In this document: one piece after another, positions 10,468 through 51,779 of the stretch
How positions within the stretch are numbered: position 1 is the stretch's first letter
Layout of the letters: each line of letters starts with the position of its first letter
Assembly: GCA_052389415.1 (NCBI GenBank)
Contig: JBQTHX010000014.1
Location: 31,862 to 95,861 of the forward strand
Origin: Nitrosopumilaceae archaeon
GTDB lineage: Archaea > Thermoproteota > Nitrososphaeria > Nitrososphaerales > Nitrosopumilaceae
Length of the DNA stretch: 64,000 nt
Direction of reading: 5' to 3'
The notes under the pieces: model-generated
What the model saw: only the letters and a program-made list of their open reading frames with translations
Databases searched by the model: none
Told to the model about the DNA's origin: nothing
Made by a program: the position numbers and the translations under genes

Positions 10468-10541
10468 GCGGAGTTAGTCCAGCCCGGCACGACGTCAGCT
10501 TCCCAAGCTGAAGGCCGCGGGTTCAAATCCCGCACTCCGCA
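10468..10541 (+). tRNA. tRNA-Gly (anticodon CCC), no intron, CCA not encoded
   Basis: Acceptor GCGGAGT/ACTCCGC, anticodon arm TCAGC-TTCCCAA-GCTGA, T arm GCGGG-TTCAAAT-CCCGC. Confidence 0.97.
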
Positions 10542-48617: not shown

Positions 48618-48968
48618 TTATTCGGAAGCAGATTCTGCTGCTTGTGGAGAACCTTCTCCAACTACTTCGGCAGTAGCAAATCGTCCCCCAACTTGGGTGA
48701 CTTTTACTTTAGTGTTCTGTCCTACTTGTCCTCCTTTGACGAATATCACAAAACCGTCTACTCTTGCGATACCGTCTCCTTTTCGACTAATTTCCGTAAT
48801 AGATACATCGTATTCTTTTCCGGTTTCTACTGGTTTTGGTCTGTCATCAAATCGTCTATCGCCGCCAAATCGTCTACCGCCTCCGTAACCTCTATTGCCG
48901 TAGCCTCTATTGCCGCCGTATCCTCGGTTTTCAGAGCCTTCGCCAAAACCGCCTTCGTTATAGCTCAT
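48618..48968 (-). CDS. TRAM-domain RNA-binding protein with RG/YG-rich N-terminus
   Basis: PKPVE.G.EY.V.I...SRKGDGIARV.GFVIFV; SD aggaggtg upstream. Confidence 0.92.
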   Translation of the reverse strand: MSYNEGGFGEGSENRGYGGNRGYGNRGYGGGRRFGGDRRFDDRPKPVETGKEYDVSITEISRKGDGIARVDGFVIFVKGGQVGQNTKVKVTQVGGRFATAEVVGEGSPQAAESASE

Positions 48969-49152: not shown

Positions 49153-49708
49153 TATGTTTGAAAAGTTCAAAAAAAACCTAGATAAATTTAGAGAACTTTC
49201 ATCTGATGAAAACAAAGATGGTAAGGGTAATGTCACTATGGAAAAATTCAATCCTGATGACCCAGTAACAGAGATTGAACAAATAAAAATACCTGAACGT
49301 GTTGAACAAGCTAGTATGAGCCAATCAAGTGACGACATAGGCATTAAATCACTCATGGATAAGAGAGCAAAACTTGAAGAAGCGATAGATTACGTGGGAC
49401 TAATGATAAAAAATCTCAAAGACAAACGCACCAAGCTCGAAAAGAGTATCGAAGATGAATCAGTGGATATTAAGAATCTTAAAGAAAAATTGAACAAAGT
49501 GAGTCAATATATTGATGAAGAAAAACAAGGAATTAGGAACCTATCACAGAAAAGATCAGATGTTGAAAAAGAGGCTGATGATGTGGCCGTAATAATTGAC
49601 AATTTACGTGAAAAACTCTCATCAATTGATCACATAGTAGATGAAGAAGGAAATAAAATAAAGAACTTCAAAGAATCAAAATCTAAAATGGAAAGTACAT
49701 TCAGCTAA
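49153..49708 (+). CDS. coiled-coil protein
   Basis: Long heptad-pattern region; start taken at MFEKF. Confidence 0.7.
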
Positions 49709-50016
49709 AAAGTAAAACCTTCCTTTAACATTGAATTGAGATTTTCTTTTATTTCCTCTACGTCGGATATTGCATTCAGATCACGTATCAAAACTTCTGT
49801 TGCTAAACATTGATTCTTAGTAAATTGATAGTAGCATTCTAATCTTTCTTGATATGTTTTTGATTTATGGAAAGTTATCCAAAAGTTTTCAGATGCATGT
49901 TGGACATAGAGTAAAAATTTGTGCATTGTGTCCTTTACTTTTGGAGAAGAGTTATCTTTCATCAAACCGATCAGGATTTGTTCTAATTTACTTTCCAAGT
50001 TTGACTCGTAAATCAT
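49705..50016 (-). CDS. hypothetical protein
   Basis: 103-aa helical ORF. Confidence 0.6.
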   Translation of the reverse strand: MIYESNLESKLEQILIGLMKDNSSPKVKDTMHKFLLYVQHASENFWITFHKSKTYQERLECYYQFTKNQCLATEVLIRDLNAISDVEEIKENLNSMLKEGFTF

Positions 50017-50197
50017 CTGATAAAGGTCGATTTCTTTTGTTATGCATTTTCTTACCTATGCCTTGTTAAAAATCTTCATACAATAAATTGCAATAAAAGG
50101 CATATTATTACATAGTTTATTCAAATTATTCTATGAATCTTATATTTCAATTATTTTTTTAGAGTAAGATTTAAATAATTTTATCACGTTATAATAT

Positions 50198-50400
50198 TTC
50201 CTATCAAAGGACATCCTCCCAAGATAGGAATCATGCGGATAAAAGCTGCGGACAAGGACCCAAATCCTTTCCGTAAAAGACGAGCCCAAATGAGATGAAA
50301 CATTCCCGTTGGTGTTGACAAAGGTCAACATAGGCTAAATGGATCCATTGGATCCGGTCTGGTGCTTTTGGCGTGTACTACAACACGCTCTGCATGATGA
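50198..50400 (+). ncRNA. candidate ~200-nt multibranched structured RNA
   Basis: At least eight nested helices; G-U pairs all favour the + strand; TATA tttaaata at 50170-50177; T-run at 50403-50407. Confidence 0.6.
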
Positions 50401-50510
50401 TATTTTTCTGATTTCAATTATAAATATATCAAATTAAAATCAACAAAACTGTAGAAATTATTAAAATGCATCATACAATATCTGGCAGCATCTGTGAATA
50501 TACAAAGTAA

Positions 50511-51779
50511 ATGTCATTATCTCAAAGTAGAAAATGGATCTGGTATATTCTTCCATCTCAAATTACAGCAGAGGGTTTACGCACTGTAATACCGTTATAT
50601 GTCATATTCCTTGGAGGAGACATCGGTGAAGTTTCTCTAGTAGCAGCACTTCATTATGGCGCGGCAGCTCTTGGTTCCTTATTCTGGGGAAAGGTGATTG
50701 ACAGATTCCATGTAAGAAGAGCTGTTTTGATTGTTTCCTTTTTTTTTATAATAATTTGTTGTTTTTGGCTATACCTTACAAATGATCTCTTTACACTTTT
50801 TGCTATTTCCCCAATAATTGGATTCTTCTTGGTAGGAAAGAATCCTGTTACCCATTTACTGGTAATGGAATCAGCCCCTAAGAATCAATGGAGTTGGTTA
50901 TTTGCAAGGACATCAATAATTGCAACTTTTGGAATGTTTGGTGCTATGATAATCGGTGCTGTATGGAGTGTATATTTTGATTTGAGCCCTTATTTTTTGA
51001 TATGTGCAGTATCAACAGGAATTGCATTAGTATTTACTACTACAATCAAGGGATCAAGTTTTCATCTTGAACGAAGCAGTATTGCACATTCAATACATGG
51101 GTTGAGCTATAGTTTTACTCACTTTCATCTGATATTTCCTAAAATCTTAGAATTATATGATTTCAAGCATATAATTTCAATTTTCAGGGGAAAGGTTTCA
51201 CATGAAATAGGAATCTTGTTTTTGGCTAACTTTCTTTTCTATTTTGGAAGTAATATCTATTTTACAGCATATACGCCATTTCTGAAACATTTTGATTTTG
51301 CAGACTCTACTGTCTTTTTGATTTATGCGATACAAACATGCGCGATGATTGCGATTTTCTTTGTTGCCCCCAAATTGATATCTAAATTGGGAGAGGATCG
51401 TGCGATATTGATTGCCTATGCACCAAGAATATTGGCGGTTCTTGTTGCTGGCTTGGTAATACCTATCATGATTGGAGCTGGCATCTTTGTGGTTTCAATT
51501 ATTTCGGTAGGATTAATGGTCATAGCCTTTTCCATTTTTAGCATAGCTAGCTCTGTGATTTTTTTTAAAAGCATTCCACAAGGTTTTGAAGGAAAATATC
51601 TTGGAGTCAACAGTTCTGTTACAGGAATTGGAGTCTTTGCTGGAGCTATAGTAACGGGAGAGCTAACAAATCTAGTTGGATATACGAATCTATTTTTGAT
51701 AGCCGCTGTGGTTTTGGTGCTGTCTTTTATCTTGTTTAGAGGATATCTGCGATACAGATTATCGCACAATGTAGTTTAG
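50511..51779 (+). CDS. MFS transporter
   Basis: 12 TM helices, G...DRF..RR motif A. Confidence 0.88.
   Translation: MSLSQSRKWIWYILPSQITAEGLRTVIPLYVIFLGGDIGEVSLVAALHYGAAALGSLFWGKVIDRFHVRRAVLIVSFFFIIICCFWLYLTNDLFTLFAISPIIGFFLVGKNPVTHLLVMESAPKNQWSWLFARTSIIATFGMFGAMIIGAVWSVYFDLSPYFLICAVSTGIALVFTTTIKGSSFHLERSSIAHSIHGLSYSFTHFHLIFPKILELYDFKHIISIFRGKVSHEIGILFLANFLFYFGSNIYFTAYTPFLKHFDFADSTVFLIYAIQTCAMIAIFFVAPKLISKLGEDRAILIAYAPRILAVLVAGLVIPIMIGAGIFVVSIISVGLMVIAFSIFSIASSVIFFKSIPQGFEGKYLGVNSSVTGIGVFAGAIVTGELTNLVGYTNLFLIAAVVLVLSFILFRGYLRYRLSHNVV

Follow-up and report, generated by a model that had tools for sequence, protein, structure and literature searches.

A structured RNA gene matching no described family in Nitrosotalea-type ammonia-oxidising archaea

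The locus, its predicted fold and its transcription signals

The window analysed here is a 64,000-nt stretch of a Nitrosopumilaceae genome (assembly GCA_052389415.1, contig JBQTHX010000014.1, positions 31,862 to 95,861), and the element in question is a gene for a structured RNA on its plus strand at 50197..50407 (window positions). The source genome is 1.43 Mb in size with a GC content of 36%, and the assembly (G000) is 94% complete. The genes around the locus, which encode a DUF6659 protein, a Snf7/CdvB homolog and transcription factor B (TFB), are those usual for ammonia-oxidising Thaumarchaeota. The RNA lies upstream of, and on the same strand as, a gene for a major facilitator superfamily (MFS) transporter, the start codon of which is at 50511. 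A preliminary description of the window had listed a stand-alone RNA of an unrecognised class at this position, with a leader of the MFS gene as a less likely option. The RNA as modelled here is ~205–211 nt long, in agreement with the fold and its z-score and with full-length model matches in all homologs; its presumed ends are placed by the TATA spacing and the T-run.

The RNA coincides with a GC-rich island: the GC content is 0.47 at 50200–50399, compared with 0.215–0.305 just upstream and 0.275 just downstream. In a genome-wide ranking of GC islands, the locus was not separable from small GC-rich genes. The plus strand folds with a minimum free energy (MFE) of −75.1 kcal/mol (z = −5.57), and none of 200 dinucleotide shuffles folded as well, whereas the opposite strand folds less well (z = −4.04). 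G-U pairs had been put forward as an argument for the plus strand; in the family alignment, G-U/U-G cells do outnumber A-C/C-A cells (172 vs 73), but the argument is only mild because the alignment was fitted to the plus strand. The conserved TATA element and the T-run described below are the stronger argument for the strand assignment.

In the MFE fold, the RNA consists of a 5′ hairpin (P0) followed by a closed multi-branch domain with two nested junctions and five hairpins. P0 (50199..50229) is formed by the pairing of 50199–50205 with 50223–50229 and of 50209–50211 with 50217–50219, lies outside the domain closed by P1, and contains a 3 × 3 internal loop (AAA/CAA) and an apical loop with CCUCC; its sequence is nearly invariant. 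The domain is closed by P1 (50230–50239/50389–50398; 10 bp, including one G-U pair). Within the domain, P2 (50240–50246/50364–50370) encloses the P3 hairpin (50247..50275; 50247–50252/50270–50275 and 50254–50258/50265–50269) and the inner junction (50278..50360), which is built from P4 (50278–50281/50357–50360) and P5 (50283–50286/50333–50336). P4 and P5 together enclose the P6 hairpin (~50289–50310) and the P7 hairpin (50312..50331; 50312–50319/50324–50331), the latter having the top UGAC-AAAG-GUCA. The P8 hairpin (50341..50355; 50341–50346/50350–50355) follows P5–P7 in the inner junction, and the P9 hairpin (GCGUGU/ACACGC, 50371..50388; 50371–50376/50383–50388) is located between P2 and P1. 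The helices given in the preliminary description are all present at their positions, both in the sequence and in the MFE fold, and two qualifications apply. In the first (ttcctatc/gataggaa), the core is retained in the relatives and the outer two pairs (tt/aa) are not. For the sixth hairpin, the relatives pair UGGGA with UCCCA, while the copy in the window has one mismatch and its fold takes an alternative pairing.

A putative promoter is located upstream of P0 (50162..50177, plus strand), comprising an A-rich stretch resembling a TFB recognition element (BRE) and the TATA box tttaaata (50170–50177). This TATA box had been recognised previously; it is present, and its distance from the 5′ hairpin is 21 nt rather than the ~25 nt then given. 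The promoter element CTTAAATAATTT is invariant in all 12 aligned homologs, which represent several genera and have diverging flanks, and (C/T)TAAATA is found at the same distance in 16 of 17 printed loci, including four of the five most distant ones (locus L113 has no clear counterpart). By analogy with the archaeal promoter consensus, the BRE/TATA element probably acts as a promoter and, given the usual archaeal TATA spacing, transcription would be expected to start at a purine 2–3 nt 5′ of P0. A TCACGT block (50184..50189, plus strand) lies between the TATA box and this presumed start; in the 12-sequence alignment, its A37, C38 and G39 are invariant, and ACGTA(T/A) is present in most of the 17 printed loci. 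The block is possibly a promoter-proximal element. At the 3′ side, a T5 run (50403..50407, plus strand) located 4 nt after P1 would serve as an archaeal oligo-T terminator: ATTTTT is invariant in the 12 sequences, and a run of T5–6 is found in all 17 printed loci, the most distant ones included. The T-run had also been noted before, and the RNA, which probably ends within it, extends a few bases beyond the end coordinate proposed at that time.

No conserved reading frame was found in the RNA or its homologs. The copy in the window contains 1–5 stops in each of the six frames, several homologs are likewise stopped in all six frames, no frame is open in all homologs, and the indels are not multiples of three. 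An ATG-started open reading frame (ORF) of 63 aa on the minus strand (50140–50331) overlaps the RNA region. Considering the six-frame stops in several homologs and the lack of a Pfam match for its product, this ORF is not the conserved element, and it should not be called a gene in annotations.

Covariation, sequence conservation and distribution

Covariation, which the preliminary description had proposed as a check, is strong across the family alignments. In alignment A6, which contains 53 distinct sequences and was fitted to the model structure, 93.1% of the pair cells are standard pairs, and double (compensatory) changes were found in 55 of the 67 pairs. None of 500 column shuffles reached any of the five measures used, and when the 3′ partners were moved by 1–3 columns, only 31.6–44.6% of the cells were paired and the number of double-change pairs fell to 16–27. 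Because A6 was fitted to the model, the pairs were recounted in a model-free, plain MAFFT alignment of 12 sequences (A3), in which 94.2% of the cells are paired, compared with 37–44% in the slid controls, and 12 pairs show double changes, compared with 0–7.

All nine modelled pairs of P1 have a double change somewhere in the family, and the helix is formed by AUCAUGCAG/CUGCAUGAU, GUGCAACAG/CUGUUGCAU or, in distant members, AUGCAGUAG/CUACUGCAU. Double changes were also found in all five pairs of P2 (AAAGC/GCUUU, UGAGC/GCUCA and CAGGCG/CGCUUG) and in eight of the nine pairs of P3. P4 occurs as GAUG/CAUC, GACG/CGUC (GAYG/CRUC) and AAGG/CCUU, P5 occurs as AAGCC/GGCUU and GAAACA/UGUUUC, and the lower stem of P0 covaries from A-U to G-C in 8 of the 53 sequences. 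From the first alignment, RNAalifold proposed a competing local pairing instead of P2, P4 and P5, but the more divergent sequences favour the nested version containing these three helices. A scan of all column pairs for an additional helix or pseudoknot returned only A-rich stretches matched to the 3′ U-run.

Four elements, namely P0, P1, the top of P7 and the core of P9, are fixed in sequence at a level of at least 90%. In P0, UCCCUaUCAAAGG...AGAuAGG is conserved at this level, and its fixed 3 × 3 internal loop presumably bears some likeness to the classical tetraloop receptor, which we offer as an idea and not as a finding. No other element of the family is as well conserved as the top of P7 (UGAC-AAAG-GUCA): its two top pairs are invariant in all 53 sequences, UGACAAaGGUCA is conserved at a level of at least 90%, and the element is also kept in the most distant members, which retain only P1, P7, P9 and the U-run. 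P6 carries a GAAA tetraloop of the GNRA type (GGA-GAAA-UCC) in some members of the family.

BLASTN detected the region in 13 of 41 relatives. Among these, 9 of the 10 genomes from the genus of the source genome gave a match, and the one that did not is 58% complete. A covariance model (R1) was then built from 12 sequences and refined to R2 and R3; the E-values of these home-built models are rough. Of the 151 genomes from this family, R1 matched 37, exactly once in each. By genus (designated here by number), matches were obtained in 9/9 genomes of g1, 10/10 of g6, 5/5 of g9, 9/9 of g11, 1/2 of g12, 1/1 of g40 and 1/9 of g32 (a weak match). One unpublished genome is counted in each of the tallies of g6, g9 and g11 (G114, G115 and G100, respectively). 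The loci of these three genomes were used in no alignment, and the tallies without them are 9/9, 4/4 and 8/8. R3 strengthened the matches in g40 and g12 and added divergent copies in g38 (E = 6e-12), g10 (E = 6e-8) and one g14 genome (5.6e-19). Clear copies of the RNA fill four genera, and divergent copies occur in five more (g38, g10, g14, g40 and g12), the matches in all homologs spanning the full covariance model.

In an order-wide sample of 151 genomes, nothing outside the family exceeded 18 bits (E = 0.003–0.006 per genome, which is chance level for 151 genomes). When public prokaryotic genomes, one per species, were scanned with a pattern, 42 loci were identified. The 38 archaeal loci were all confirmed by full-length model matches (102–240 bits) and belong to records titled Nitrosotalea sp., Candidatus Nitrosotalea devanaterra, and uncultured Nitrosopumilaceae or Thaumarchaeota, and the four bacterial-labelled loci gave no model match. 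One pattern match in viral contigs, for which two patterns were tried, scored 3.7 bits with the model and was not confirmed as a virus-borne copy. The RNA belongs to the Nitrosotalea-type part of the family; in most of the other genera sampled it was not found, a wording that we prefer to 'absent' in view of the search filters and sequence divergence.

The downstream MFS gene and comparison with known RNA classes

Among the 35 loci with enough flanking sequence, 28, representing four genera, have the RNA on the same strand as one and the same MFS gene and 52–114 nt upstream of it; because gene order is shared among close relatives, neither these 28 loci nor the exceptions are independent counts. 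A block conserved across the four genera, AAATGCATYRTACAATAATA, lies in the spacer that separates the RNA from the MFS gene and ends 26–30 nt before the ATG. In the window, a AAATGCATC-ATACAATA block is found outside the RNA at 50464..50482 (plus strand), ~30 nt before the MFS ATG. In genus g9, a promoter-like block directly follows the T-run of the RNA, and the modelled RNA end is only 52 nt from the ATG. As judged from its sequence, the spacer block is probably the BRE/TATA element of the MFS gene itself, which would produce a nearly leaderless mRNA. The stretch at 50433–50482 in the window, ATTAAAATCRACAAAACTGTAGAAATTATTCAAATGCATC...ACAATA, is likewise conserved across genera; its 3′ part resembles the MFS promoter, and a regulator could bind to its 5′ part.

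MFS orthologs with 48–60% identity are present in g34 (9/9), g37 (9/9), g42 (4/5) and g43 (2/2). No model match was found upstream of these orthologs, even with filters off (best score 10.8 bits, 11 loci), and their upstream regions are short, AT-rich spacers with no GC island and with other upstream genes. Two g11 genomes have lost the MFS gene and kept the RNA at 131–141 bits, with a convergent Snf7 gene as the next gene. At one such locus (L044:1703-1800), the MFS promoter-like block remains and is followed by an ATG and then by a stop codon, a remnant that suggests a recent deletion of the MFS gene. The surroundings of five distant homologs are different again: these RNAs are preceded by a plastocyanin-like gene or an RNA 3′-phosphate cyclase gene and followed by genes for coiled-coil proteins of no known family, and their downstream genes are unrelated to MFS.

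For a cis-acting leader, no promoter would be expected between the RNA and the gene, and the same or related downstream genes would be expected across the phylogeny. At this locus, the T5 run after P1 and a TATA-like block (as inferred from motifs) intervene, and among the 35 loci the downstream gene is the MFS gene in 28, a convergent Snf7 gene in two and an unrelated gene in five. The evidence is consistent in its direction, and the RNA is independent of the neighbouring MFS gene. This independence and the intervening TATA-like block disfavour the MFS leader, in line with the lower rank that it had initially been given.

The RNA was compared with the 4227 covariance models of Rfam 15, using gathering thresholds and permissive E-values, and no family matched it in the window or at eight homologous loci, which agrees with the lack of known signatures reported in the preliminary description. 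At gathering scores, the only match in the whole window was a tRNA (10468–10541). At E ≤ 10, six matches were obtained for 49900–50700, with scores of 13.6–20 bits against gathering scores of 50–100 (20 vs 60 for the best), and at E ≤ 5, the eight homologous loci produced three unrelated weak matches, none of which was on the RNA. ARAGORN identified no tRNA or transfer-messenger RNA genes in 50000–50600.

Several specific classes were considered and rejected. The RNase P RNA of the genome (RF00373) is encoded elsewhere (C81:10601-10878, 184.8 bits), and nothing matches this family at the locus. The signal recognition particle (SRP) RNA (RF01857) also has its own copy (C14:1704-2016, 114.5 bits), ~80 kb from the locus. 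A Y RNA was considered because one distant homolog follows an RNA 3′-phosphate cyclase gene, but the Ro60/TROVE domain (PF05731) had no match in the 94%-complete assembly, while the control matched in 2 of 14 genomes. Box C/D small RNAs (sRNAs) are ~50–70 nt long and form a kink-turn from a C box close to the 5′ end and a D box close to the 3′ end. In the present RNA of ~210 nt, an AUGAUGA-like string is confined to the P1 3′ strand and the tail, with no conserved CUGA partner because the letters after the T-run vary. H/ACA sRNAs contain one to three hairpins with a large pseudouridylation pocket, each followed by an ACA box; the RNA described here has a closed multi-branch domain instead of tandem hairpins, a P0 internal loop of only 3 × 3 and a 3′ tail, GAUAUUUUU, without ACA.

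RNase P RNA and SRP RNA resemble this RNA in being single-copy, multi-helix and GC-rich relative to the genome, and they are the RNA parts of ribonucleoproteins, as is proposed for this RNA below; this RNA matches neither and, being confined to part of one family, is not universal. Orphan structured non-coding RNAs include Hgc and SscA from archaea with AT-rich genomes and OLE and raiA from bacteria. These share with the present RNA their location in GC-rich islands and conserved folds without a known function, sometimes beside membrane-protein genes, but the present RNA has no Rfam match and differs in taxon and architecture. Thalassoarchaea ncRNA 1 (Tan1), an abundant orphan non-coding RNA of 229 nt from marine group II Euryarchaeota, is similar as far as the available text describes it, in that both are archaeal, ~200–230 nt long, stand-alone, restricted to a single lineage and predicted to have a complex structure, and neither has an Rfam family (PMC5069720). 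Tan1 belongs to another phylum and was found via expression (PMC5069720), whereas the present RNA has comparative support only, and the two are likened by description and not by sequence. Archaeal riboswitches for thiamine pyrophosphate and fluoride, as covered in the accessible part of a survey (PMC5473149), also combine a junction-rich conserved fold with a place ahead of a transporter gene that is read in the same direction. In the RNA described here, however, the closing helix is directly followed by a T-run, the transporter gene is preceded by a promoter-like block of its own, the gene association is not kept across the family, and no Rfam riboswitch matches. No description of this RNA was found in the openly searchable full-text literature (subscription papers and supplements being outside this scope), and the Nitrosotalea genome paper, in its accessible part, mentions no non-coding RNA at the locus (PMC4836417).

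Interpretation of the RNA and its neighbouring genes

The presence of a structured RNA gene at this locus is confirmed by its fold, covariation, single-copy occurrence, transcription signals, lack of an ORF and independence from the MFS gene. We consider it the best explanation, with a probability of roughly 70%, that it is a stand-alone, trans-acting non-coding RNA gene of an undescribed family, the product of which is most probably the RNA part of a ribonucleoprotein. Expression, transcript ends, action in trans and protein binding are deductions from sequence features. Transcription would start ~20 nt after the consensus BRE/TATA element and stop in the T5 run past the last helix, yielding a stable RNA of ~210 nt that would act in trans as a compactly folded molecule. 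It is most probably a subunit or scaffold of a lineage-specific ribonucleoprotein, with P0 and the top of P7 as candidate sites of protein or tertiary contact. A ribonucleoprotein fits best because two hairpins are fixed in sequence, the consensus promoter is strong, and the gene is strictly retained as a single copy in four genera. The RNA is rated as a new class because it fits no described family, and the stand-alone RNA of an unrecognised class proposed at the outset gains support from these results: no known family was hit, covariation was present, and the overlapping ORF was not conserved. A function of an already familiar type is nevertheless conceivable. It is a more doubtful proposition that a hitherto undescribed ribonucleoprotein or ribozyme, restricted to the Nitrosotalea lineage, is built around this RNA and has a function without a described archaeal counterpart; if this is true, the RNA would join a very small number of lineage-specific archaeal RNAs with complex folds outside the universal set.

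Several points weigh against the reading of a stand-alone RNA acting in a ribonucleoprotein. The transcript, its ends and its abundance are derived from DNA signals only, and the position upstream of the MFS gene is shared by most loci, so that some read-through coupling into this gene could occur. The pair counts of alignments A5 and A6 are inflated by the fitting of these alignments to the model structure, and the shuffle control ignores the relatedness among the sequences. P4 is the weakest helix, with 72% of its cells paired. Moreover, a partner protein was not found by neighbourhood, as no gene is located next to the RNA in all contexts, and the divergently encoded neighbour, a 103-aa protein discussed below, was rejected as a partner, being present in 61 of 151 genomes, including genera without the RNA.

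Among the alternatives, a cis-acting leader or riboswitch of the MFS transporter would have the domain sense a signal and decide between a stop at the T-run and read-through. The conserved spacing to the MFS ortholog on the same strand in the four genera, the short distance in g9 and a junction-rich architecture typical of aptamers are in keeping with such a role. We nonetheless judge it unlikely, since the T-run is constitutive and directly follows the closing helix with no covarying anti-terminator pairing, the TATA-like block 26–30 nt ahead of the ATG implies that the MFS gene has an mRNA of its own with almost no leader, and the invariant P0 lies outside the closing helix. The gene context points in the same direction: MFS orthologs occur without the RNA in g34, g37, g42 and g43, the RNA is maintained beside a convergent gene in two genomes without MFS, and the genes downstream of the five distant members are unrelated to MFS. 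A base-pairing regulatory sRNA, in which the P0 loop CAUCCUCCC, resembling an anti-Shine-Dalgarno sequence, would pair with purine-rich mRNA sites and the remainder would provide stability, appears quite improbable. The loop is predicted to be single-stranded, and its sequence is conserved at a level of at least 90% within the four main genera; however, its CCUCC is lost in distant members, whereas P1, P7 and P9 are kept. Searches of the genome itself for sites complementary to P0, P3, P6 and P7 returned 6–11 matches of 12 nt per segment, 1–4 of them off-locus, and no segment had an off-locus complementary match longer than 13 nt (counted irrespective of start-codon position). The nine covarying helices also exceed what a seed-pairing sRNA would need. 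A base-pairing role for the CCUCC loop is thus unlikely, because the loop is lost in distant members and no complementary site in the genome stands out. The 3′ end of the 16S rRNA, with which the loop might be compared, was not found in the assembly.

A catalytic RNA, namely a new ribozyme that is self-cleaving or acts in trans, would be consistent with the complex, junction-rich and conserved fold, the fixed internal loops and the GNRA-type loop of P6 in part of the family, and such complexity is unusual in a simple regulator. We consider this very unlikely, as there is no match to any Rfam ribozyme family, the gene is a single copy at a fixed locus with no mobile element association and no occurrence in viral contigs, and nothing indicates a substrate; a role as a ribozyme or sensor is nevertheless conceivable. 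That there is no RNA at all, and that the conservation stems instead from an element acting at the DNA level or from a gene for a small protein (the 63-aa minus-strand ORF, for example), is scarcely credible and largely refuted already. The ORF does start with ATG and overlap the region, and P7 is an inverted repeat in the DNA, but the compensatory substitutions in 55 of 67 pairs are explained by neither a protein nor a DNA site, and the stops in all six frames of several homologs, the indels that are not multiples of three and the lack of a Pfam match argue against a protein.

To our knowledge, few complex-folded archaeal RNAs have been identified besides rRNA, tRNA, RNase P RNA, SRP RNA and guide RNAs. 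RNAs this elaborate are frequently catalysts, sensors or the cores of ribonucleoproteins. The addition consists of an RNA of ~210 nt with nine covarying helices and a consensus promoter, encoded once per genome. In four genera of ammonia-oxidising archaea, no sampled genome lacks it, and records titled Nitrosotalea are among those that carry it. Riboswitch surveys, in the parts available, list only a handful in archaea (PMC5473149). According to the accessible text of its genome paper, Nitrosotalea has cultured representatives (PMC4836417), and laboratory study of the RNA is therefore feasible.

The 103-aa protein is encoded on the minus strand at 49705–50016, divergently from the RNA, and belongs to no Pfam or NCBIfam family. 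Its gene is located at a near constant distance from the RNA (153–176 nt) in 30 of 35 loci, and the protein shares 62–89% identity within the RNA-bearing genera and at most 46% elsewhere in the family. The product of another upstream gene (206 aa) is a coiled-coil protein with only sub-threshold SMC-like matches. Downstream of four of the distant homologs (L108:1774-3039, L113:2-1483, L112:2043-2810 and L114:2104-2904), a protein family without a Pfam match is encoded, which contains one or two copies of GDxGRL...(K/R)PL(Y/F)xSDQxYL along with a conserved MPKGW and an extended coiled coil rich in K and E. This family is unrelated to the 206-aa protein, and its nearest relative in the source genome is encoded on another contig (E = 2.5e-5).

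The P7 motif recurs in the genome within two other genes, one for a collagen-like repeat protein and one for a subtilisin-type protease, and both occurrences were dismissed as coding coincidences. The former (G000:C63:2700-3400) is a collagen-like Gly-X-Y repeat gene of the GDKGP type in a thaumarchaeal genome, and the match to the P7 motif is GGTGACAAAGGTC. The tRNA at 10468–10541 in the window is on the plus strand and scores 65.7 bits, and the SRP RNA gene is on the same contig, ~30 kb before the window start. A 130-aa ORF of no family on the plus strand overlaps the gene for a 116-aa TRAM-domain protein (E = 5e-14) on the minus strand at 48618–48968, which is located in a second local GC peak (0.43–0.48).

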